A stretch of 42,440 nucleotides of DNA, taken from contig JAIRZP010000003.1 in the NCBI GenBank assembly GCA_031267175.1, forward strand, positions 1 to 42,440, written 5' to 3'. Below the pieces are notes generated by a model. That model worked only from the letters and a program-made list of their open reading frames with translations, ran no database searches and was not told the origin of the DNA. This DNA comes from Coriobacteriales bacterium (GTDB taxonomy: Bacteria > Actinomycetota > Coriobacteriia > Coriobacteriales > UBA8131). Made by a program: the position numbers and the translations under genes. This document shows positions 1-14,034 of the stretch, piece by piece; position 1 is the first letter of the stretch, and the number at the start of each line of letters is the position of its first letter.

Positions 1-1067
1 CTCCAATACTCAATCATTGGAGCAAGGGACAGGACTTCTGATACCGGAGAGAAGAACAATTGCGTTGGAGCTTCGTCATCAGTGTAATTAATATCGGTTT
101 CATAATCTGGGTACAAACGTTTCTCGGAGAACCCACGAAGAAGTTTTTCTGGTATTAACTGCATGATTGTGGTCTTAAAATCAAGCAGTCTGTCTAGTTC
201 TCGAGGCGATACAAGCAACCCATATTCATTTATCTGATCTAAAAACGTCATGTCCGGGTTTTCAATTAAGCACAGACTGCTGGGCACCAGTCTTATTACA
301 AGTGTTGAGTCTGTCGCCTCAATAAATGAACCCAGCTTCACAAGCGGCTTTGATTCAAACTCTGAAGCTCCAGAGAACTCCGCAACAACAGACACAGCTA
401 AAAGCCCAATTTGAACCTGGGTTCTAAGTTTTACAATATTGTAATCTGGATTGATTTTAATCAGGTTTGCAGTTTCTCCGGCTGCTTGTGTCTGCGGGAG
501 AAAGCTAGCAAGCAGCTTTATCAAAGCCTCTTGGCAATACCCAAAATTCTCATCACCCTTATCTGACCACTTTGGATGGCCTATTCCGTTAGGGCGCGCT
601 ATTGGTGTGGCTCCCACTGACCCTTTAGTTGACATTATAAGATAATCAGCGAATAAAGAGATAGCATCCCGGCATACTTGGTTTCTGAATGCTGAAGAAG
701 TGGTGGTGTCGCAAGAGTATGCCAAAGAAATATCAGAAGCTAGATCAAATTTCCTCTGTCGAATTCCTAGTGCACAGTTTTCCCTTGATGTGTTGAGCAT
801 CATGTGAATAATCGATGCCCACCCATTTGCACTAGTATCGCATCTTCTGCTTGTGCTGCCAAGAACTAGGCTTGCTGACTCACTGAATCGATCTATGCTT
901 CTAACTAACTCATCAACATATCTATACTTCGTTAAGTCAGTATTCAATAGACTAATGACTTGGTGCAGAGAGGGGTAAGCATCAAGAGAGTTTTTTCCAT
1001 AGAGCCCTGTATGCTTGCTTAGACTATGCAGCTCAGTAATTACGGCGCTTTTCTCTATGCTAGTCAC
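1..1067 (-). CDS. Hypothetical protein, 3' end beyond the left window edge (at least 355 codons)
   Basis: I reverse-complemented 1-1080 by hand. One frame is open for all 355 codons from GTG at 1067-1065 to position 1, which is significant because this DNA is AT-rich. The ORF is absent from the supplied track, presumably because it has no in-window stop. AAGGA lies about 11 nt upstream of the GTG. No domain recognised, and the start is uncertain. Confidence 0.55.
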   Translation of the reverse strand, partial: MTSIEKSAVITELHSLSKHTGLYGKNSLDAYPSLHQVISLLNTDLTKYRYVDELVRSIDRFSESASLVLGSTSRRCDTSANGWASIIHMMLNTSRENCALGIRQRKFDLASDISLAYSCDTTTSSAFRNQVCRDAISLFADYLIMSTKGSVGATPIARPNGIGHPKWSDKGDENFGYCQEALIKLLASFLPQTQAAGETANLIKINPDYNIVKLRTQVQIGLLAVSVVAEFSGASEFESKPLVKLGSFIEATDSTLVIRLVPSSLCLIENPDMTFLDQINEYGLLVSPRELDRLLDFKTTIMQLIPEKLLRGFSEKRLYPDYETDINYTDDEAPTQLFFSPVSEVLSLAPMIEYW

Positions 1068-2271: not shown

Positions 2272-2727
2272 ATGAGCACTTTTGCTTTGACCAACAACAA
2301 CGAGAAGGAGGACATCATGCAGGAGAAGGAGTATGACCAGAAGATGGTCGCCAGCACGGACACGGTAGTGGACAAGTCCAAGCTCACGAATCCGTGGGCG
2401 CGTAAGAACAGCGAGAAGGAGGACATCGTGAACGACAAGAAGTACGACCAGAAATTGGTGCCCGGCACCTTTGGCGGCGGAGTCCAAAGCCAGCGTCTGA
2501 CGCCGGGCACGTTCCGAGGCGGCGTGCAGTCTCAGCGTTTGACTCCCGGTACCTTCCGGGGTGGCATCCAGAGCCAACGCCTCACCCCTGGAACCTTCCG
2601 AGGCGGTGTGCAGAGCCAGCGCCTGACCCCAGGCACCTTCCGTGGAGGGGTACAGAGCCAGCGTCTGACGCCGGGCACTTTCCGCACCATCACCCTTACG
2701 GCTGGCCAGCTCCTCAAGCGCTACTGA
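2272..2727 (+). CDS. Tandem-repeat protein, 151 aa: duplicated EKEDI..YDQK leader followed by about 5.6 copies of a 14-aa unit QRLTPGTFRGG(V/I)QS
   Basis: AGGAG (2261-2265) sits 6 nt upstream of ATG 2272. The track's 2140 start overlaps the preceding ORF and has no SD. The repeats are in frame, and synonymous variation between copies argues for real coding. Confidence 0.75.
   Translation: MSTFALTNNNEKEDIMQEKEYDQKMVASTDTVVDKSKLTNPWARKNSEKEDIVNDKKYDQKLVPGTFGGGVQSQRLTPGTFRGGVQSQRLTPGTFRGGIQSQRLTPGTFRGGVQSQRLTPGTFRGGVQSQRLTPGTFRTITLTAGQLLKRY
2449..2685 (+). repeat. 42-bp (14-codon) in-frame tandem repeat array: one degenerate, four full and one truncated copy
   Basis: Unit starts are at 2449, 2491, 2533, 2575, 2617 and 2659, an exact 42-nt period. 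The peptide is nearly invariant while codons differ (Pro as ccg/ccc/cct/cca; Arg as cga/cgg/cgt/cgc). Confidence 0.95.
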
Positions 2728-2847: not shown

Positions 2848-3282
2848 GTGTCAAGCATGACAGGCTGGTTGAACCGGAACTTCCCGGGTATCGCCAACAA
2901 GATCGGCTACTGCAAGCGTGTGTTTCAACCGCGAAGCGGGACGCTTGGTGCCACGCAGGGAGTGCATATGGATTACTACGGAAACATACCCGCCGATGCG
3001 GACGAGGAAGACATCTACGCAACCGAGGACGGCTACATGGAGGTAGCGTTCTGGTACCACCGCCTTGGCGAAGGCAACTGGAGGGTCTACATCCTTTCAG
3101 ACATCAACTATCACGGACGGGATTCTGGATCACATCCATCTCACCGCTATCACGACAGCACCTTGAATATGCACTACATCTGTTACGACCAGACAATCCG
3201 CACGAAGGCCGAGGCCAAGAACGTCTCAGCCGACTGGGCAGACCTTACCGCCCACTATATCCAGACAGGCACACCGTTCTAG
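2848..3282 (+). CDS. Small conserved-pair protein A (144 aa from GTG 2848, or 104 aa from ATG 2968); the Cys-containing paralog
   Basis: GGAAGGAGGG lies upstream of GTG 2848, and third-codon positions are G/C-rich from 2848 on. An alternative SD, AGGGAG, sits 6 nt before ATG 2968, where similarity to the next gene begins. Contains HPSHRYHDSTLNMHYICYD. The C-terminus VSADWADLTAHYIQTGT is shared with the next gene. Confidence 0.7.
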   Translation: MSSMTGWLNRNFPGIANKIGYCKRVFQPRSGTLGATQGVHMDYYGNIPADADEEDIYATEDGYMEVAFWYHRLGEGNWRVYILSDINYHGRDSGSHPSHRYHDSTLNMHYICYDQTIRTKAEAKNVSADWADLTAHYIQTGTPF

Positions 3283-3308
3283 TATCAACCAAGAGAAGGG
3301 AGTTATTG

Positions 3309-3632
3309 ATGAACATAGTTGAAGCTTCAAGCAGGGGCATACCCGCTGATGTGGACGAGACCGACGTCTACATGACCGAGGATGGCTACATCGCAATCGA
3401 GTTCTGGTACCACAGGATGCAGGACAACACCTGGAGGGTTTACATCATGTCCGACATCGACTATCACGGCAGGGATGTCAGCTCCAGTGTGTCACACACC
3501 CATTCTGATGACGGCAATGGGTACAAACACATTTCCTATGAGGCCGTCCAGGACAAGAAGACTGCCAAGGCTGTATCGGCCGACTGGGCAGACCTTACCG
3601 CCCACTATATCCAGACTGGCACAAGGTTTTAG
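3309..3632 (+). CDS. Small conserved-pair protein B (107 aa); Cys-less paralog of the preceding gene
   Basis: AAGGGAG lies upstream of ATG 3309. The protein aligns with protein A (IPADxDExDxYxTEDGY, FWYHR, WRVYIxSDIxYHGRD, VSADWADLTAHYIQTGT). The position equivalent to the Cys reads HISY. Confidence 0.75.
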   Translation: MNIVEASSRGIPADVDETDVYMTEDGYIAIEFWYHRMQDNTWRVYIMSDIDYHGRDVSSSVSHTHSDDGNGYKHISYEAVQDKKTAKAVSADWADLTAHYIQTGTRF

Positions 3633-3660: not shown

Positions 3661-5277
3661 ATGAAGAGAGCAAAAGCAGGTAAGCAGAGCATCAATGCGA
3701 GGCACGTCACAGTGCACAACCGCTTCGGAGCAGCATGGTTGTGCATCACCGGCAGGGACATTGCATGGAAGAATGTTGAGCCCAAGATCATTCCTTTCGT
3801 CTTTCAGGATGCCGAAATCCTGTCGTCCGCTGGGCGAGCATCAACCGCAGGTAAGGCACCTCAAACCCTTTATACGGAGCCGATTCAGATAACTCATGAG
3901 GTCTACTCCATGATCAAGAACACCGTGGGAACGTTCCGTCCTGAGACCGGCATGATGCTTGGTACCAGCGACGGACAGGTAATCGACCATTGCTACTTCG
4001 ATGAAAACGCTCAAGTGAGCGGCGGCGAGTACAACCCGAACATTGACCATCTCAACGATATTGTCCTCCCGACGTGGAACTCCCGTGGCATCAGCATGGT
4101 GGGCTTCGTCCACTCCCACCCCTGTGGCTACTGCACCCCCAGTCCATGGGACATTCAGTACGCAGGAGAGTTACTCAGCATTCTGCCGGGTCTGTCCAAG
4201 TTCGTCATACCAATCGTCCAGAGCCGCGCCACCGGGCAGTTCAGCATCCAGTTCTACTGTGTGCGCCGCTCGCTCTCGAACGCGTCATTCGTGGAGCCAT
4301 GCAAGCACAAGATCATCTTCAGGAACAGGACAGATGAGGATGATGCCGTGACGAATGCCATGGCACTGCGCACCGGCGAGGTCTACCCCCGTGACGTGAT
4401 GGCCACGAAGACCGTCGTTGTCGTTGGCTGTGGTGGCTCCGGCGAGTATGTCGAGTACCTCGCCCGCTGCGGTGTCGGCAGGATAATCCTCATCGATGGG
4501 GATAAGTATGAGCGCTCGAACATCGAGACGCAGAAGGCATATACCGATGAGATTGGCGTGCCAAAGCCGTTCGCCCTTGCCACCCGCGTGGCAAGGATTG
4601 ATCCGGACATCGAGGTAGTGGCCGTACCCCACAATCTCGACAACGACTTTGAGGACGACGTGTTCGCAGCGCTGATTGGCCAAGACATCCTGACGGATCG
4701 ACCAAAGGACGTCCTGATTGCAGGCTGCACTGACGACTTCTATGCCCAGATGCGCACTGCCCGTCTGGCGTTGAACCTCAGCTGCCCCTATGTGGCAACC
4801 CAGATCTATGCCAGGGGAGACGGAGCCGAGGTCATATTCACCTACCCCGGTGTCACGGCTTCCTGCCCGCGCTGTATGCTCGGAAGCCGTTATGACGCAT
4901 ACCTTGAGGAAGGCTTTGTCAACGACACCACATCGGCGCAGGCACCGCTCTTCTGCACCCAGCGCGCCAATGCCACAGTGGGCTTCATCAGCTCAATGCT
5001 ACTGCTATACGGCTGTGCGCCAACAAGCCGCTTCAACGACGAGCTGGATAAGGTGAAGAACCGCAACTTCGTGCTTATCCGCATGAGGGACAGCTTCGAT
5101 GCGCCGCCCTTCGACGGCGGATTCGCCGAGAGCGGTTACACCTACTATGACGACACCGCATGGGTGATGCAGGTGCCTGATGACGGTCTGGATGGCCGAC
5201 CGCGCTGCCCAGACTGCCATGGCCATGGAAACCTTCTGGCACTTAAGGGTATGTGCCGGGATACACGCAAGCTCTAG
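3661..5277 (+). CDS. JAB/MPN(JAMM) metalloisopeptidase fused to a ThiF/MoeB/E1-like adenylyltransferase (538 aa)
   Basis: AAAGGAG sits 8 nt upstream of ATG 3661; the track's 3382 start overlaps the previous gene out of frame. JAMM motif HSHPCGYCTPSPWD, i.e. HxHx7Sx2D (4111-4152), with an upstream Glu in RPETGMMLG. E1 Rossmann motif VVVVGCGGSGEYVEYLARCGVGRIILIDGDKYERSNIETQ (GxGxxG at 4426-4443). Also the CTDD motif and paired CPRC and CPDC zinc motifs, as in ThiF/MoeB. Confidence 0.85.
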   Translation: MKRAKAGKQSINARHVTVHNRFGAAWLCITGRDIAWKNVEPKIIPFVFQDAEILSSAGRASTAGKAPQTLYTEPIQITHEVYSMIKNTVGTFRPETGMMLGTSDGQVIDHCYFDENAQVSGGEYNPNIDHLNDIVLPTWNSRGISMVGFVHSHPCGYCTPSPWDIQYAGELLSILPGLSKFVIPIVQSRATGQFSIQFYCVRRSLSNASFVEPCKHKIIFRNRTDEDDAVTNAMALRTGEVYPRDVMATKTVVVVGCGGSGEYVEYLARCGVGRIILIDGDKYERSNIETQKAYTDEIGVPKPFALATRVARIDPDIEVVAVPHNLDNDFEDDVFAALIGQDILTDRPKDVLIAGCTDDFYAQMRTARLALNLSCPYVATQIYARGDGAEVIFTYPGVTASCPRCMLGSRYDAYLEEGFVNDTTSAQAPLFCTQRANATVGFISSMLLLYGCAPTSRFNDELDKVKNRNFVLIRMRDSFDAPPFDGGFAESGYTYYDDTAWVMQVPDDGLDGRPRCPDCHGHGNLLALKGMCRDTRKL

Positions 5278-5292
5278 AGAAAGGGGATCGAA

Positions 5293-6615
5293 ATGTTGAT
5301 GAACGAGATGAGGCCGCTGGTAGGGCCGACCGTACGAGAGGCAGGGGCATCCAACAGCTGCGTTGCCCTGACATTCGACCTGCCGCCCACATGCGAACCA
5401 GCAGTCTGCCAATTCGGCTTTGAGAAACACGGCAATACGGGATTGGTCATGATTGAGGAAGGCGTCACCTACCACGGCAATAACCCCGAGTTCCGCGCCT
5501 TCGTCGAGGAGGGTACCTACTCCTATGCCAGCGAGGCCGATCTGCGCAGGTTCTTGGACGTACTCGATGCAGTCGTGGCCGCAGAGGGCATGGCTGCGGA
5601 AAACCGGGAAGAACGAGAGGGCAACCCAGGTGACGCTGACCAGGAGGCTCGTGGCGCTCAACTGGAGGTCATAAGGCTCTTTGATGAGGATGTGTTCAGG
5701 GTGTCCATGGGCGAGGACATCAGGGGCCAGGGCGAGGCCATAGAAGCCATTTTGCCGCTGCTGTCCACCGCAGTCAGGAAGCATCTCTCAAGCAGACCCT
5801 TGGTGGTCGTCCTTGCTGGGGAGACCAGCATCGGCAAGACCTCGTTTGCTGTCAAACTGGCCGAGGCAATCAATGCGGCCACCGGCGCTGAGTTCGGTAC
5901 CATCAGAATCGACATGAACCAACTTGGTGAGCGCCATGCCACCAGCCGCTTCTGGGGTCCACCTCCTGGATACGTCGGCTATGACCAGCCCACGGTGTTC
6001 GACCAGCTGCTGGAGAACCCCCGCCAGGTCATAGTCTGCGACGAGATGGAGAAGGGTGACCCCTTCATCATGAACGCATTGATGAACGCCATGGCAAGCG
6101 GGCGCATGGAAAGCTCCCGCATGCGCGAGGACGGCCGGGGCGAGTTCGACTTCTCCAAGAGCATCATGGTTTTCACCACAAACGTCGCCTTGGATGTCGA
6201 GGCCGACGCCACGCAGCGCGACATGACCCATGCCTGCAAGCAGCAGCTGCGCGACTACCACGCAAACGGCTACAGCTTCTCGCCAGAGATAGTCAACCGC
6301 TTCTCGGAGGTTATCGTCTTCAAGCCGATATCTGATGACGTGAAGCGTGAGATAGCCGAACTGTCCATTGTACGGCTTGCCCGTCAGTTCGAACTTGTCG
6401 TGGAGCATGTGGATGCAGATCTGCTCACGGCCTTTGCGGAGCGCTGCATCGCCGAGGAGGGCGTCCGGGAATTCGAGTACGAGGCGGAGCGTGTTTTCGG
6501 CGTTGCGATGGCCAACTACGACCAGGAAGCAGAAGGGCATACAGTCGCTGTGACCGGCACGATTGACGATCCCGTTGTCGAGCGTGCCGATGGTGCTGAG
6601 GTCCCAAATGGGTAA
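5293..6615 (+). CDS. AAA+ ATPase resembling the second nucleotide-binding domain (D2) of ClpA/ClpB, with a unique N-terminal region of about 170 aa
   Basis: GQGEAIEAI..., Walker A GETSIGKT (5818-5841), IRIDMNQLGERHATSRFWGPPPGYVGYDQ, Walker B VIVCDEMEK, MASGRMES...GRGEFDF, VFTTN and SPEIVNRFSEVIVFKPIS. These track the ClpB D2 consensus (IRIDMSEY..H.VSRLIGAPPGYVGY, DEIEKAH, DDGRLTD..GR.VDF, PEFLNRID). Confidence 0.85.
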   Translation: MLMNEMRPLVGPTVREAGASNSCVALTFDLPPTCEPAVCQFGFEKHGNTGLVMIEEGVTYHGNNPEFRAFVEEGTYSYASEADLRRFLDVLDAVVAAEGMAAENREEREGNPGDADQEARGAQLEVIRLFDEDVFRVSMGEDIRGQGEAIEAILPLLSTAVRKHLSSRPLVVVLAGETSIGKTSFAVKLAEAINAATGAEFGTIRIDMNQLGERHATSRFWGPPPGYVGYDQPTVFDQLLENPRQVIVCDEMEKGDPFIMNALMNAMASGRMESSRMREDGRGEFDFSKSIMVFTTNVALDVEADATQRDMTHACKQQLRDYHANGYSFSPEIVNRFSEVIVFKPISDDVKREIAELSIVRLARQFELVVEHVDADLLTAFAERCIAEEGVREFEYEAERVFGVAMANYDQEAEGHTVAVTGTIDDPVVERADGAEVPNG

Positions 6616-7406: not shown

Positions 7407-8084
7407 ATGGTTACTAAGGCCATTACACGCGATGACTACAGGGCGAAGCTGTTCACTCCGCTGAGCAGCACATTTGGGGTGCCGATTGCCTTCAACGGCG
7501 AGAGTAACGCTGGTCGGATTGCCGGTGGCAGGACACTTGGGATATATGTTCATGCTGACCACGCCATAGTAATCAGATACCGCGATTGTCCCGTGTCGCT
7601 GTTCAAGACGGTTGCCCATGAGATAGGCCATGCCACCGACCCCTCACTCAGTCCAGAGGCACTGAGTTCTGTGGAGCCACAACTGCATGGCGGCCACAGG
7701 AGCTATGAAGAGGCCGTGGCCCGGTTCGTTTCCTACTATTCTCTCTGTTATGCAGGCGTAAAGGTTCCCAGCGAAAAGGTTCGCGCCGACGAGCTGCTGG
7801 CTAAGCACGAGCGTGTCTATAGAAGGTATAAAACCGAGCCGCTGAAGCTCCACATCTTGAACCTGATGGAGATAGCCGAGGTCATCGCCTTCGTTGCCAA
7901 GCCGGGACGGATGGAGCTGTTGGATGGATGGAGCGACGATTGGGGGTCCTGCAAGTTCTGCAGGGACTATCCAAAGGGCATAAGACCCTGCAAGTTGCTG
8001 GCGGAGCCAGTGGTTGAGAAAGCGGGCGGCAGAGCTGCCGCCCGTCGCAAGAACAAAAGGAAGCGTAGTAAGAATTATGCATAA
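7407..8084 (+). CDS. Putative zinc metallopeptidase (HExxH), family unassigned, with a basic C-terminal tail
   Basis: GAGGAG lies upstream of ATG 7407. VAHEIGHAT contains HEIGH at 7617-7631. The C-terminus is RAAARRKNKRKRSKNYA. Confidence 0.6.
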   Translation: MVTKAITRDDYRAKLFTPLSSTFGVPIAFNGESNAGRIAGGRTLGIYVHADHAIVIRYRDCPVSLFKTVAHEIGHATDPSLSPEALSSVEPQLHGGHRSYEEAVARFVSYYSLCYAGVKVPSEKVRADELLAKHERVYRRYKTEPLKLHILNLMEIAEVIAFVAKPGRMELLDGWSDDWGSCKFCRDYPKGIRPCKLLAEPVVEKAGGRAAARRKNKRKRSKNYA

Positions 8085-9093: not shown

Positions 9094-10338
9094 ATGGCTG
9101 CAAGTCAGACAAATATCATTGACTTCAAGAAGGCTCGAGCCGAATTGAAGAGGAGCGAGCGACTGGTCACCTTGCCCATCAGACGCTCCAGGCTCAAGTC
9201 CAGGGCAGCAGCCATTCTGCTGGTTGCATTGGCCGTTGCCGTATCGGCAGTTGCTCTGGTTGCTAGGTTCATAGACAATGCCATGTATCCCAGCGACTGG
9301 TTCAATCCCTTGTCGCTGCTGGTATGGTTCGTAATTGGCCTTACCGCATTGGCTTGCGGATGGGCGTTGTTTGATGCTGGGTCACTCTATCAGAATCGTT
9401 GGTGGGTCTGGGGTGCAACGGTGTTGATGTTCTGGCTGCTCTGGACTTTTGGCGACCACTATTGGCGCTATCTCTATCTCAAAATAGGCGATGTCCACAT
9501 CCCGTCGCAGGCGTTCATTGTTATGGTTGTCGTGTCTCTCACGCTCCTCGTGGAGACTCAGCGCAAGCGTGGGGTGTGGGGGATGTATTTTTTTGCTGTC
9601 GGCCTTATGGTTGTGGCTGCTGCATCAGTATTCTTCAGCATATCGTTGTCGTTTTTAACCGTTTTTGTGTGCATCGTGGTAATTGGTACTGCTGTCGCCA
9701 GGAACCACTATGGCGACAGGCGGTGTAGGAAGGTGTTCATCGTTGGTGCTAGCATTGTGCTGTTGGCGGTGGCCTCCTATATCATAGTCGGGACGCAGCG
9801 AGTAGATCGCCTGTCAGTGTTCTTTACGGATGGCGCGAGTGATCCGTTGGACTATGATTATCAGTTCCAAGCAGCGGATATGATTGGCTATGCTTCTCAG
9901 CTTTTAGGCCAACTCGAAGAAATGACCGACGAGGTTTTTCTTGCCAGAAGCCTGTTCGGGTATTCAGATTATCCATTTCTGGACATAGGGTTCGTCTTTG
10001 GGCGTCTTCCCTCTCTGGCTGTTGTGGCAGCGTGTCTGGTGACAGCCTGGCTTGCACTCAGGGCTTCACGATATGATGCAAATCGTTACGGCGGTCTAAT
10101 TACGACTGGGCTTGCGGCAACCATCGCCTTCCAGGTGCTGTTTGGGATACTGAACAACTATGGACTGACTCCCTCTGCAAGCTCAATCACAGTACCGCTG
10201 GGTAGCGAGACCGGGTTGCCTTTGGTGCTTCATATGTTCATGGTGTGGGCATTGGCCTCAGCCCTCTGGAAGCCGCGACTGCCCAATTTAACAGAACCGC
10301 TTAGGGAGAAGACCCAACGCTGGAGGAAGGCTGCATGA
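9094..10338 (+). CDS. Divergent SEDS (FtsW/RodA/SpoVE)-like polytopic membrane protein (414 aa)
   Basis: ATG 9094 abuts the previous stop (TAAATG). There are about 10 hydrophobic segments. The C-terminal half is colinear with FtsW/RodA:
- DRLSVFF..DPLDYDYQFQAADMIG vs RL..[21 protein letters not shown]
- GYSDYPFLDIGFVFG vs LPEAHTDFIFAIIGEE
- TIAFQVLFGILNNYGLTPSASSITVPLGSETG vs [32 protein letters not shown]
Several signature residues are substituted. Confidence 0.55.
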   Translation: MAASQTNIIDFKKARAELKRSERLVTLPIRRSRLKSRAAAILLVALAVAVSAVALVARFIDNAMYPSDWFNPLSLLVWFVIGLTALACGWALFDAGSLYQNRWWVWGATVLMFWLLWTFGDHYWRYLYLKIGDVHIPSQAFIVMVVVSLTLLVETQRKRGVWGMYFFAVGLMVVAAASVFFSISLSFLTVFVCIVVIGTAVARNHYGDRRCRKVFIVGASIVLLAVASYIIVGTQRVDRLSVFFTDGASDPLDYDYQFQAADMIGYASQLLGQLEEMTDEVFLARSLFGYSDYPFLDIGFVFGRLPSLAVVAACLVTAWLALRASRYDANRYGGLITTGLAATIAFQVLFGILNNYGLTPSASSITVPLGSETGLPLVLHMFMVWALASALWKPRLPNLTEPLREKTQRWRKAA

Positions 10339-12242
10339 GCGGCAGAGCCCACAAGACCCGCATTATGCTGATGGTGCTGGTCGATGTCTCTTGCGCAGAC
10401 GAGTCGGATCAGGCTTGCAGGGAGCGCCTGGCCTCGCTCGATGATGCCGTCAACTCCTACAAGAAGGAACTGAGACGTATGGGAGCGGGACATAACGTTG
10501 TGATTGCAACCGCCGCCTTTGCAAACAGGCTCTTCGACCACTCTGCATTCAACAACGACTCGCGTGTTGACTTCTCCCCAGTCGTGAGCGATTCCTCTTG
10601 CTGGGCAGAACCGTTAGCATGGGCAATGAAAAAGATTGAGCATGCGAAAAAGGTCTATGACCTCGAAAACGCGATCCATTTCCCGCCGATAGTACTGTTC
10701 TTCTCCGCATCCAACACTGAAGACAGGTACGGCGAGGCTATCGAAGCCCTGCGCGATGCTCGTGCAAATGGCGATATCACAGTAAGGGCTATCGGCACAA
10801 AGGGCAGACCTGAGCTGCTGGCTCTCCAAGGTATGACGGATGACGTGGTATTGGTTGATCCCAAAGACACGACAGGTTGGGTTGAGGAGTTCTTCCGTAC
10901 CACCGACATGATAAAGGCGGTCTTGAATGGCAAAAGGCCATTCGATTCAGTGGCTGTCAAGACGCTGATCAACGAGACAATCAATACTCTGGATTTGGGA
11001 GCTGGCGTATTCCCGGAGCAGGCTATGGCCAAGATTTCTATGGCGCTAAAGAAGCAGAACGCCGTTGTTCGCAACAAGCTGGACCTGGAATCTGATGCTA
11101 CGTTCAGTATCGAAGAGGCGCGTGCTGTCGTGAAGGCGCTGAACTCGATGTGCGACAGGATGCCCGAGCGATGCCGAGGGTTTGCCGAGGACATTGGCGT
11201 TCAATACAGGGCGGCATCCAGTGCGAGGACTCCCTCGTCGCCAGAAGATGACAGCAGGAGACTCAGCGAAGAGTCTTCTGGGGATTCTGCCGTTCAGTCG
11301 CTGCCTAAGAAGAACAAGAAGGGCAAGAAGGCCACCGAGCAAGATGTTCCGAAGACTATGGAGCTGCCGCTGGAGATTATGACCAAATCCGAGATGGAGC
11401 TCGCTGCCCTCATCGGCCTTGATGAGGTCAAAGCGGTGGTGGGAAAGATAGTCGCTCTGGCTAAGCTCAACAAGAGGTATCCCCGACGCGGCAAGCCAAG
11501 ACAAACCTTTTTGCACATGGCATTTCTGGGGAACCCGGGTACTGCCAAGACCACTGTCGCACGTCTGCTGGCGAAGATTCTCCAAGAGCATGGCATCCTT
11601 CGTAAGGCCGAGCTAGTGGAGGTTGGCAGGGATGGCCTCATCGGTAGATACGTAGGCTCCACTGCGCCAAAGGTTGTCGCGGCATTCGACAAGGCCAAGG
11701 GCAGCATACTGTTCATCGACGAGGCACACTCTCTCGTTGACAGCGGACGCGGAGACTATGGAGACGAGGCACTGGCGACGATAGTGAAGGAGATGGAAAA
11801 TCGATGCGGTGACCCAGTGGTAATCATGGCTGGCTACCCACGGGAGATGGAGGCGCTGTTGCATCAAAACGCAGGACTGAAAAGTCGTATCAAGTTCATC
11901 GTGAACTTCCCCGACTATTCCGATGAGGAGATGCTCATGATTGCGGAGCGAACAGCGAAACAATACGGCTATGCGCTTGCTGGCGGCATTCGCGAAAAAG
12001 TGATGTCTATGATTGCCGAGGCTAGGAGAGACGAGACATTCGGCAATGGCCGTTGGGCACGGAGCCTCATTGAGCAGGCGGAGCTAAACCTCGCCGACCG
12101 CCTCATCAAGCTGAGCATCGACGAGATTGACGACGCTATGCGGAACACACTGACAGCTAAGGACTTCGAAACCCCACCTGACATCAAGCTCAAACACAGA
12201 AAGCAGAAAATCGGCTTCATGCCACAAGAGCGCAACAAGTAA
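10335..12242 (+). CDS. vWA-like N-terminal domain fused to a CbxX/SpoVK/EccA-type AAA+ ATPase (635 aa)
   Basis: The start overlaps the upstream stop (ATGA at 10335-10338). The N-terminus RIMLMVLVDVSCADES...IVLFFSASNTED...ITVRAIGTKG has a vWA-like strand pattern, but the DxSxS MIDAS motif looks degenerate. The C-terminus has LIGLDEVKAVV, Walker A GNPGTAKT (11529-11552), GRYVGSTAPKV, Walker B ILFIDEAHSL, VIMAGYPREM and GLKSRIKFIVNFPDYSDEEM, the classic CbxX/SpoVK layout. Confidence 0.8.
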   Translation: MSGRAHKTRIMLMVLVDVSCADESDQACRERLASLDDAVNSYKKELRRMGAGHNVVIATAAFANRLFDHSAFNNDSRVDFSPVVSDSSCWAEPLAWAMKKIEHAKKVYDLENAIHFPPIVLFFSASNTEDRYGEAIEALRDARANGDITVRAIGTKGRPELLALQGMTDDVVLVDPKDTTGWVEEFFRTTDMIKAVLNGKRPFDSVAVKTLINETINTLDLGAGVFPEQAMAKISMALKKQNAVVRNKLDLESDATFSIEEARAVVKALNSMCDRMPERCRGFAEDIGVQYRAASSARTPSSPEDDSRRLSEESSGDSAVQSLPKKNKKGKKATEQDVPKTMELPLEIMTKSEMELAALIGLDEVKAVVGKIVALAKLNKRYPRRGKPRQTFLHMAFLGNPGTAKTTVARLLAKILQEHGILRKAELVEVGRDGLIGRYVGSTAPKVVAAFDKAKGSILFIDEAHSLVDSGRGDYGDEALATIVKEMENRCGDPVVIMAGYPREMEALLHQNAGLKSRIKFIVNFPDYSDEEMLMIAERTAKQYGYALAGGIREKVMSMIAEARRDETFGNGRWARSLIEQAELNLADRLIKLSIDEIDDAMRNTLTAKDFETPPDIKLKHRKQKIGFMPQERNK

Positions 12243-12285
12243 AACCGCTAAGGTTACTGTCATAGATTGAGAGGTTGGCCAAGAA

Positions 12286-13302
12286 ATGGTAGAACAGACT
12301 AAGAATATTGCAAAAGCGTATTCTCTGCTTGGCTTGGAATATGGCTCAGATTTGCACACCATCCACAGAATGTGGAAAAGGAAACTAAAAGAGTCCCATC
12401 CCGACTTTGGTAAAGATAAAAAGGATGAACTACGAAGAACAAAGCGTGCGCAGGAGCTGAACGAAGCTTATAAAGTCCTGGGGAATGCCTGTCGGAAGGG
12501 TTTGATTCCACAGGGAAAAAAGCCAACCAAAGCTCAACCAGCGCCCATCCCAAGCCCAAACACTGAAGCAAAAACGAATAAAGGCATAAATTCAAAGCTT
12601 CGACCCAAACGCCCTGACCATGGCAATGCGAAGCGTGAAGATGCTTTTGCTGATCTCTATCAGTCATGGTGCGACAAAAAGTTTTGGGTGGACGAGCTTG
12701 CAATACTTTCAGAAAACCCGCAGGTAGCGCTTCCAAGAGATGTCTGTGATGCTCTGGAGTGCATTATCAGAAGCGTTTCGCGGCATAGCGTTATGAAGGA
12801 GTGGTGGTGGCCAGATATTCGCATTCTGCGCCCCCCATACCGGAAGTATGCTTATCCAGGAAGTGGTACCGCCCTAATTACCAAGCGTCTAGAGCACATG
12901 GTCAGATGTCTCGGCTTAAAGAGTATCGGGCAGGAGGATTTTTGCAATTTGAGATCGCTGCTGTGGGTGACGTTCGGTTCAATGCTGAAAGACAGAATCG
13001 GAGCAGAACCGGGTTTGTTCGACCTCTTTTTTGCAGTGAACACAGAAAATACTAAACTGGTAGAGTCTTGGATAAAGATGTATCAGCCAGGATATATAAA
13101 CAGCCGAGTCTATCGGCAAATGTCCGCACGAAACAAGGGGAAGCGGAAACCGGGGAAGCTCGCCTACGCTCGCGAGGTCTGGTATGTGCAGCACAAAGGC
13201 AGAAGGCTTGAGGAAGATGTCTACAAAAAATTGGAGCAGGCCTGTCAGCTTTATGTTGTTCGCACAATCATCAAGTATGAATGGCCCCAGGACTCATTGT
13301 GA
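12286..13302 (+). CDS. J-domain (DnaJ N-terminal domain) protein with an unknown C-terminal region of about 230 aa (338 aa)
   Basis: AYSLLGLEYGSDLHTIHRMWKRKLKESHPDFGKD...AQELNEAYKVLGN, with the HPD tripeptide at 12397-12405. There is no Gly/Phe region and no zinc finger. The gene is AT-richer than its neighbours. Confidence 0.8.
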   Translation: MVEQTKNIAKAYSLLGLEYGSDLHTIHRMWKRKLKESHPDFGKDKKDELRRTKRAQELNEAYKVLGNACRKGLIPQGKKPTKAQPAPIPSPNTEAKTNKGINSKLRPKRPDHGNAKREDAFADLYQSWCDKKFWVDELAILSENPQVALPRDVCDALECIIRSVSRHSVMKEWWWPDIRILRPPYRKYAYPGSGTALITKRLEHMVRCLGLKSIGQEDFCNLRSLLWVTFGSMLKDRIGAEPGLFDLFFAVNTENTKLVESWIKMYQPGYINSRVYRQMSARNKGKRKPGKLAYAREVWYVQHKGRRLEEDVYKKLEQACQLYVVRTIIKYEWPQDSL

Positions 13303-13455: not shown

Positions 13456-13482
13456 CTAACCTATTACGAGCTTGAGGTGAAG

Positions 13483-14034
13483 ATGAATCGGTTGATGAGC
13501 GAAATCCTATATGATGACAACAAGCAGGAGATTGGTCGTGTGGCTTTCAGGCAAGTGATTATCAGGGCGCATCCCATCTTGCAGCGGCTGGATGACGAGG
13601 GGCTTCCACCGGGCAGCTCAGCGTTGGTGTTAGTGACAGACTGGTCGTTCGAGGAGGGCGACGCCTGTGGCGGCTTCGCTTGCGAGCTGAGGGTTGAGTT
13701 TTCCGATGTCACCAATGCGAGGCGTAAGGACTCCATGAAGCCGGAACATGCCCAGACGATAGCCAGATTCATCAGATCTCTCGGCGAGCACATCGACAGC
13801 ATCGTAATCAGCTGTGCCGGGGGCATGTCGAGAAGCCCAGCAATCGCGGCCGCAATCATGTTGGCGCAAGGCCAAGCTGACATGGCTATCTGGGAGAACC
13901 CCAACTACTCACCCAACCCGCTCTGTTATCGCCTAATGCTGGAGGCATTCGGTTTGCCTACTGACCAGGTGAAGAGCAAAATCAAAACCAGCAAGAGAGC
14001 CTTTGAAACAGCGTTTGGCCGGTGCACGGAGTGA
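13483..14034 (+). CDS. Cys-based phosphatase-like protein (CX5R P-loop; PTP/DSP superfamily), 183 aa
   Basis: GAGG sits 5 nt upstream of ATG 13483. IVISCAGGMSRSPAIAAAIML contains C-A-G-G-M-S-R-S, i.e. CX5R(S/T), at 13813-13833. Confidence 0.55.
   Translation: MNRLMSEILYDDNKQEIGRVAFRQVIIRAHPILQRLDDEGLPPGSSALVLVTDWSFEEGDACGGFACELRVEFSDVTNARRKDSMKPEHAQTIARFIRSLGEHIDSIVISCAGGMSRSPAIAAAIMLAQGQADMAIWENPNYSPNPLCYRLMLEAFGLPTDQVKSKIKTSKRAFETAFGRCTE

Follow-up and report, generated by a model that had tools for sequence, protein, structure and literature searches.

The window analysed here is the entire 42.4-kb contig (42,440 nucleotides (nt), GenBank JAIRZP010000003.1) of a Coriobacteriales genome bin (1.7 Mb, 73% complete). 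It carries two small adjacent genes, here called gene A and gene B, followed by a gene for a JAB/JAMM peptidase fused to an E1-like adenylation domain (JAB-E1) and a gene for a ClpB-like AAA ATPase. We propose, with a probability of about 0.55, that proteins A and B are two copies of a minimal protein with the ubiquitin-conjugating (UBC) fold, that is, E2-like proteins, and that they are the upstream partner of the JAB-E1 and the AAA ATPase on Gram-positive conjugative elements. The E2-like domain is predicted to consist of a beta-meander, a loop with a nearly invariant His...Cys pair, and one long C-terminal helix. Paralogy, family, conserved residues, predicted fold, and gene order have been computed, and from these all of the chemistry and the partnership between A and B are inferred.

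A sequence-only reading of this DNA had described A and B as tandem paralogs that align along their length, with a Cys in A and a Ser in B at one position, and both observations hold. The two proteins are 59% identical across 98 residues (BLASTP, E = 9e-39), and HPSHRYHDSTLNMHYICYD of A is aligned to VSHTHSDDGNGYKHISYE of B at the position in question. The gap between genes A and B is 26 nt and that between B and the JAB-E1 gene is 28 nt; because these gaps are short, the three genes are almost certainly co-transcribed. A Shine-Dalgarno-like GGAGG can be read from the sequence for gene A. The two proteins differ most in the loop leading from the His to the Cys (A residues 95–119), where 6 of 24 residues are identical. 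A word-index search with B identified P0002 as its sole ortholog, which is 75% identical and likewise has a Ser; the two have 80 of 107 residues in common overall and 19 of 24 in the loop. This shared loop suggests that B is a duplicate whose catalytic loop has been altered from Cys to Ser and which remains under selection. The Cys/Ser pair has so far been seen only at this locus, with P0002 as the single further protein of the B type.

The word-index search yielded three proteins, A, B, and P0002, and these seeded an exhaustive HMMER search that returned 307 cluster representatives at E ≤ 1e-3, 31 of which fall at E ≤ 1e-10. The family profile matches A at 9.1e-58 and B at 7.7e-64. Residue counts are taken from a 150-row alignment of A and 149 representatives and are given in domain numbering, while architecture counts are made over 151 representatives. 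The alignment has the consensus YRTxDG...FxF...WRxYI..P.Y..R....HxTHRLxD.....Y[IV]CW......A..VA..WAD.T..YI.TG.RF. Around the loop, His59 is found in 147 of the 150 rows, Arg60 in 131, and Asp63 in 116, and Cys72 is kept in 144, the others having Ser (3), Asp (2), or Phe (1). The sequence-only reading had named lack of a conserved Cys in orthologs as refuting its E2/UEV idea; in the family the Cys is kept. The C-terminal helix and tail contain Trp90 (146/150), Tyr97 (148/150), Gly101 (141/150), and Phe104 (126/150). The HPS motif pointed out by the sequence-only reading is present in A; as a conserved flap motif it does not stand, since the first His of HPSH (His56) is found in 93/150 and the Pro after it in 13/150, there is no conserved Asn, and the nearly invariant His is the second His of HPSH, A His99.

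The protein ends with the domain, 2–3 residues after Gly101, in 90 of the 151 representatives, and extends past the motif in the remaining 61. Four representatives, P0004 (366 amino acids (aa)), P0007, P0010, and P0068, contain 2–3 tandem domains. The middle domain of P0004 has neither the His nor the Cys, and this protein may therefore be a fused counterpart of an active/inactive pair. A metagenome scan returned one short contig, L001, which is too short for neighbour genes. Its positions 2–688 encode a protein of at least 228 aa in which a long Ala-rich N-terminal region precedes a C-terminal A-type (Cys) domain; P0005 (334 aa) is similar to this protein.

The AlphaFold 2 (AF2) model of the A domain (104 residues, built with the 150-row alignment) has a predicted local distance difference test (pLDDT) score of 89.8 and a predicted template modelling (pTM) score of 0.81. 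Its topology is three strands, a loop, two strands, the Cys, and a helix, with Cys72 directly after the strand at residues 68–71 and the helix at residues 80–100. The model lacks three helices of classical E2s, alpha1 at the N-terminus and the last two. In a VIA-align comparison with 48161 chains, the best match is 8hsb_B, the E2 of the Serratia CdnG-E2 complex (hereafter SmE2), with a Z of 7.6 and a root-mean-square deviation of 2.8 Å over 96 of the 104 residues; a Z of 7–8 is the usual best score for models without a clear match, and a Z below 8 is not decisive alone. The BubB part of 9eav_D comes second (Z 5.2), and going by their titles, E2, ubiquitin E2 variant (UEV), UFC1, or RWD proteins make up 25 of the first 30 rows. 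When the 1000 best Foldseek chains were given a second look, 8hsb_B was again first and the next row had a Z of 4.8, which is 2.8 lower. A feature search of the ESM Atlas led to a cluster with PF26395 E2-CBASS on 17% of its members (score 0.91) and to an RWD cluster (0.86).

SmE2 is described (PMC12948482) as a helix and four strands, followed by a loop in which the conserved Cys101 comes right behind the last strand, and by a C-terminal helix. By this order of elements, Cys72 of the model is at the same place as SmE2 Cys101, and the aligned ranges (3..104 of the model and 34..147 of SmE2) put SmE2 residue 101 near model residue 70, as an arithmetic estimate. The structure prediction and fold comparison called for by the sequence-only reading thus give A a UBC-like predicted fold whose best match is a bacterial E2, and A and its family have the conserved Cys after the last strand, where B has Ser76. 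For B the fold is taken over from A, the single-sequence AF2 model of B being poor (pLDDT 39.9). On this basis B, with Ser76 opposite Cys112 of A, corresponds to a UEV in the sense of a UBC fold without the catalytic Cys.

The gene context points in the same direction. The Prok-JAB match of the JAB-E1 covers residues 97–180 and the ThiF match residues 248–410. Its matches in the PDB are UBA5 (6.7e-11), MccB (6e-9), ThiF, and MoeB, and it matches BubCD at E = 2.9e-4 in both domains (residues 145–373). In 58 JAB-E1 homologs there is no variation at the JAMM residues E95, H151, H153, S161, and D164, at the adenylation (ATP)-site residues, or in either CxxC pair, and from these residues the protein looks active. 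At this locus, only the E1 part is matched by the PADLOC E1-E2 models.

A scan of IMG/VR with a JAB-E1 alignment returned two full relatives, L007 and L008, whose JAB-E1 proteins are 38% and 35% identical to that of the window; a scan with a second alignment returned the same two loci. In both, a Cys-bearing family member lies directly upstream of the JAB-E1 gene (E = 1.8e-37 and 2.5e-28) and an AAA homolog directly downstream of it (E = 1e-33 and 9e-40), followed further on by MT-A70, a coupling-protein-like ATPase, and a relaxase-like gene. The earlier link of the E2-like gene to the adjacent E1 is therefore upheld by the recurrence of the same adjacency. Indirect evidence of co-occurrence comes from three further pairs of E2-like and JAB-E1 proteins found on contigs of equal size, P0002/P0167 (19827), P0006/P0173 (46271), and P0004/P0186 (9091). 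When 67 JAB-E1 homologs were searched with the E2-like profile (hmmsearch), no fusion of the two was found. Complex prediction for the E1 domain (210–538) with the A domain gave a score of 0.00 in two runs made without controls and counts neither way.

In the further collections scanned the module was not found. The family profile had 0 matches beyond its own genome in 400 genomes of the phylum, and the JAB-E1 had 0 matches in 400 genomes of the class. Nothing was returned by tblastn of P0013 and the JAB-E1 against phage and plasmid collections, by a viral-contig search with P0013 and P0006, or by genome-contig searches with a family alignment and the JAB-E1. By this distribution the module is rare and mobile.

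These observations make A, as modelled, a candidate Cys-type E2 of a conjugation module resembling those of Bub, Bil, and the cyclic-oligonucleotide-based antiphage signalling system (CBASS), which is the best-supported reading. In the most probable pathway, the JAMM domain would expose the C-terminal Gly of a modifier or a substrate, the E1 domain would adenylate that C-terminus, the acyl group would be handed to Cys112 of A and from there to a target, and the AAA unfoldase would act on, or be regulated by, the modified protein. B would most probably be a non-catalytic or specificity-giving partner of A, as Mms2 and Uev1 are for Ubc13. The sequence-only reading had tentatively proposed such a minimal E2 plus UEV pair for the adjacent E1. 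The E2-like character of A stands by its predicted fold, the Cys kept across the family, and the E1 adjacency, the HP flap motif does not, and the UEV role of B stays a supposition because the E2s of Bub work through a Ser.

Several observations weigh against an E2 assignment. Foldseek found no match to the A model in the PDB at E ≤ 1e-3, and the best VIA-align score lies in the indecisive range given above. The family has no entry in any of the four libraries searched: there was no Pfam, NCBIfam, PADLOC, or PHROG match for A, B, or the family members tested. Pfam gave nothing for A or B at E ≤ 0.1, including the UQ_con and Prok-E2_A-E profiles, and nothing for 64 members at E ≤ 0.01, in a copy that lacks PF26395 E2-CBASS; PADLOC and NCBIfam gave no match among 150 members. 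A profile search of PDB sequences with the family alignment found only a chance match (E = 1.3), and hhalign of the family against seven Prok-E2_A domains from 6 genomes gave a probability of 0.28 (E = 0.22). The HPN motif expected ~8–10 residues before the Cys is absent from the family, which has H-x-T-H-R-L-x-D instead and whose invariant His precedes the Cys by 13 residues. A hydrophobic 19-mer precedes the domain at the N-terminus of 63 of the 151 representatives, which is unusual for E2s. The B model is unusable. No beta-grasp family was found by Pfam among the window's open reading frames (ORFs) scanned, the Prok_Ub model had no match, and the ThiS model found nothing in the window, its matches in the bin's own genome lying inside large frames on other contigs. 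Finally, a conserved Cys is lacking from the E1 crossover loop (residues 406–437): 22 of 58 sequences have Cys at position 428 and 2 of 58 have it at position 432, the JAB-E1 of this window among the latter, while Arg410, Ser425, and Asn437 do not vary. An E1-to-E2 thioester relay of the classical kind can therefore not be assumed. As the profile-level homology tests failed, the E2 assignment rests on the fold, the placement of the His and the Cys, and the gene context.

The crossover loop also bears on what B does. As a second E2, B may itself be active and, like BubB, use a Ser oxyester, in parallel to A or downstream of it, which we consider possible but unlikely. The E2s of Bub have an invariant Ser at the E2 Cys position and a nearby His, the Bub peptidase-E1 fusion has no catalytic Cys, and the Bub pathway runs via oxyesters (10.1101/2024.11.21.623953); the E1 family here is likewise without a conserved crossover-loop Cys and has the invariant Ser425. 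B keeps the invariant His as His63, has His74 two residues before Ser76, and shares the motif VSHTH.DDG.GYKHISYE with its ortholog P0002, and BubB is the runner-up in the fold comparison of A. On the other hand, the Bub signature Ser-x-His, in which the His follows the Ser, is absent from B, neither a DUF6527 partner nor an E2 fused with a ubiquitin-like protein (Ubl) turned up among the ORFs scanned, and few family members (3/150) have a Ser at this position, from which it follows that the family as a whole uses Cys.

A reading that gives up the E2 chemistry altogether takes the family as a small alpha/beta adaptor or chaperone (SycE-like), or as a metal-binding domain, that serves the AAA ATPase or the JAB-E1, with A and B as two adaptor variants. 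Type III secretion chaperones (SycE, STM2138) are indeed among the fold matches at Z 4.4–4.6, which is a further point against the E2 assignment, and they also appear in weak Foldseek rows. The failure of the profile searches to find E2s and the apparent membrane anchor of the 63 representatives noted above are in line with this reading, and H-x2-H-x3-D-x8-C (His56, His59, Asp63, and Cys72) could bind a metal. However, the best match is an E2 that scores 2.4 to 2.8 Z above the other rows and covers nearly the whole domain, the hit lists are dominated by E2, UEV, and RWD proteins, the conserved neighbour is an E1, and His56 of the putative metal site is kept in only 93/150. An adaptor role is thus doubtful.

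It is very improbable that A and B are themselves the conjugated proteins, with the JAMM domain cutting after the Gly of YIxTGxRF and the E1 adenylating that Gly as for the CD-NTases of type II CBASS: the Gly is conserved and 90 proteins end just behind it, no separate modifier was found, and A and B are most alike, in nucleotides and in protein, in the tail, but the helix reaches residue 100, the last block has a pLDDT of 91, the Gly resembles a helix cap with a packed Phe104, 61 members extend past the motif, and the modelled tail does not look like a flexible end able to reach an adenylation site. Because the model shows an ordered tail, the C-terminal 'TG' was rejected as a site of cleavage by the JAMM domain.

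The gene directly upstream of A offers a speculative candidate for a JAB-E1 substrate. Its 151-aa protein contains a tandem repeat (2464–2684; 42 nt, 5.3 copies, 74% nucleotide matches) that encodes QSQRLTPGTFRGG[VI], with five RGG ends and one GGG end just upstream of the JAMM-E1 gene. With 74% nucleotide matches the repeat units are nevertheless near-identical as protein, which indicates selection at the protein level. A bolder account, which we hold to be rather unlikely, would make the locus the representative of a new class of ubiquitination-like module on Gram-positive conjugative elements. It would combine a His/Cys E2, often membrane-anchored and here present in paired Cys and Ser forms, with a JAB-E1 in which a crossover-loop Ser takes the place of the Cys and with a ClpB-like unfoldase. 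Having no beta-grasp modifier, it would activate the C-termini of host or invader proteins, or short peptides ending in Gly-Gly that the JAMM domain would cut out of the 151-aa protein with its five TFRGG repeats. Such a module would tag by a peptide and not by a folded ubiquitin-like domain, and would couple the tagging to unfolding. The RGG-repeat substrate is kept within this bolder account since no such repeat gene lies upstream of the E2-like gene of L008.

The sequence-only reading had also noted an identical stretch shared by the two genes, and it is exactly 38 nt long at the positions claimed. It encodes ADWADLTAHYIQ(T) of the C-terminal helix. Over 291 aligned positions the nucleotide identity of A and B is 0.667, and an identical run of at least 38 nt was obtained in 8 of 20000 codon-column shuffles. 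Outside the block, 30 of the 45 amino-acid-identical codons are also identical in nucleotides, and from this fraction 12 identical codons in succession have p ~0.008. The block, whose statistical weight is moderate, therefore suggests a short gene-conversion tract, as had been proposed, or a constraint at the nucleotide level; a conversion tract is plausible but falls short of proof.

Coordinates of the genes, key codons, and identical blocks discussed in the text, and of the conjugative-element backbone
Feature	Position	Strand	Description
Upstream gene	2272..2727	+	151 aa; Shine-Dalgarno-like site; no family match
Gene A	2848..3282	+	Minimal E2-like (UBC-fold) protein, 144 aa from GTG 2848; domain ~ residues 47–144
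Gene A, alternative in-frame starts	ATG 2857, ATG 2968	+	Purine-rich stretches precede both
A His99 codon	3142..3144	+	CAC; nearly invariant family His (His59 in domain numbering)
A Cys112 codon	3181..3183	+	TGT; candidate catalytic Cys right after the last beta strand (Cys72 in domain numbering)
38-nt block in gene A	3229..3266	+	Identical to 3589–3626; part of the C-terminal helix
Gene B	3309..3632	+	Cys-less paralog, 107 aa from ATG 3309; Ser76 at the Cys position, His63 kept
B Ser76 codon	3534..3536	+	TCC; opposite A Cys112 in alignments
38-nt block in gene B	3589..3626	+	Identical to 3229–3266
JAB-E1 gene	3661..5277	+	538-aa fusion of a JAB/JAMM peptidase and an E1-like adenylation domain; Pfam ThiF 4.7e-21, Prok-JAB 0.0018
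ClpB-like AAA gene	5293..6615	+	ClpB-D2-like AAA ATPase, 440 aa; Pfam AAA_2 5.6e-21; NCBIfam ClpB 1.5e-31
Conjugative-element backbone	14662–42440		CHAP hydrolase, VirB4-like ATPase, MT-A70 methylase, VirD4 coupling protein, ArdC-N, DUF3801
Conjugative-element backbone, continued	14662–42440		MobA/VirD2 relaxase, DpnD/PcfM, Toprim/DUF3991, 2115-aa SNF2-type helicase, SpaA-repeat surface protein

The AAA protein of the window and those of L007 (1956–3398) and L008 (9332–10825) have a common N-terminal domain of ~130 aa with the motif LPxxCxP...Y.G.NP. At the C-terminus all three have G[TS][IL][DE][DE]P followed by a short variable tail, and the window protein ends in Gly. This motif was considered as a cleavage site and rejected, as it is presumably part of the Clp D2 small domain.

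Two further small genes with ribosome-binding sites precede the repeat gene. The first (1873–1959) is a tiny gene that encodes a Cys-rich peptide of 28 aa, and the second (2061–2216) encodes a 51-aa protein with four CxxCxGxG-type repeats, like a DnaJ zinc finger, and weak Pfam matches to DUF7895 (0.0032) and DUF5351 (0.0036). Downstream of the AAA gene, a 225-aa ORF (7407–8084) contains HEIGH (HExxH), read by eye, which suggests a zinc metallopeptidase, and has no Pfam match. For a 414-aa membrane ORF (9094–10338), the match to FtsW/RodA/SpoVE-like proteins is weak (E = 0.0017). A second AAA ATPase (AAA and AAA_lid_6, 635 aa) and then a DnaJ-domain protein (338 aa) are encoded on the same strand at 10335–13302, and a 185-aa ORF (13477–14034) has a weak dual-specificity phosphatase match (E = 0.0011). 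The rest of the window is a Gram-positive conjugative element.

Recent work has established bacterial relatives of the ubiquitin machinery (CBASS Cap2/Cap3, Bil, Bub, and E2-CBASS) as functioning conjugation systems. The closest of them in structure is SmE2 of the E2-CBASS of Serratia marcescens (8HSB chain B), the best structural match of A and the protein type to which the Atlas search led through PF26395. Like A, it is a short E2 with a single C-terminal helix, and it has its conserved Cys in the loop that follows the last strand directly (PMC12948482). SmE2 has an N-terminal helix that the A domain lacks, and the two have no detectable sequence similarity, with 9% identity in the structural alignment. 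SmE2 is reported to act on its CD-NTase partner without an E1 or a JAB (10.1101/2022.05.25.493364). In E2-CBASS the genes for the CD-NTase and an effector are beside the E2 gene, whereas no nucleotidyltransferase was found among the ORFs scanned here, and JAB-E1 and AAA are the fixed neighbours.

The type I Bub operons (6E.1; BubAB, BubCD, and BubE) share with this locus a JAB peptidase N-terminal to the E1, as stated in PMC1779556, an E2 without the last two UBC helices, and an E1 crossover loop without a conserved Cys. The Cys-less peptidase-E1 fusion of Bub (10.1101/2024.11.21.623953) thus parallels the E1 loop found here; BubCD has a Tyr instead of the Cys. BubB, like B, has a Ser at the catalytic position. 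Bub uses this Ser in its E2, whereas the present family has Cys. Bub also has a beta-grasp Ubl fused to an E2 with invariant Ser and His, and A and B have no beta-grasp part. The DUF6527 serine protease BubE had no counterpart matched among the ORFs scanned, the presence of DUF6527 in the Pfam copy being uncertain. The third conserved gene here is a ClpB-like AAA gene carried on Gram-positive conjugative elements, unlike in Bub.

The Ubc13-Mms2/Uev1 pair resembles A and B in that the genes specify two UBC-fold proteins, one of the active type and one Cys-less, and Mms2 and Uev1 are both among the fold matches of A. The likeness extends to P0004, which joins Cys-bearing and Cys-less domains in one chain. 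In contrast to that pair, B keeps the conserved His and has a Ser rather than a non-nucleophilic residue, and there is no similarity in sequence. The Bil operons (6C/6D) and type II CBASS with Cap2/Cap3 bring together E1, E2, and JAB activities on mobile, conflict-related DNA, as here (PMC1779556; 10.1101/2023.09.26.559546). Their proteins are separate or E2-E1 fused and their E1 has a catalytic Cys, unlike the JAB-E1 here, and they have a defined modifier (BilA or the CD-NTase), whereas none was found at this locus.

No account of this gene set was found in the literature searched, whose scope did not extend to the bioRxiv supplements, including the Bub Table S1, where related operons may be listed. 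Judged by those parts of their descriptions that are available, the module is set apart from the described operon types by a minimal His/Cys E2, the absence of a Ubl and of DUF6527, CD-NTase, and metallo-beta-lactamase (MBL) partners, a Clp-type ATPase, and conjugative carriage.

Compared with the known systems, the locus adds a family unlisted in the libraries, with a very small E2-like domain, fixed peptidase-E1 and Clp-type unfoldase partners, and no modifier that can be recognised. In being linked to an unfoldase, the module recalls the logic of ubiquitin with Cdc48 and the proteasome and of Pup with Mpa. The pair of A and B is a natural experiment in which one domain has a Cys or a Ser at the catalytic position beside an E1 family without a conserved Cys, and it could reveal how relays by thioester and by oxyester change into one another, and whether the pairing of an E2 with a pseudo-E2 arose in bacteria.

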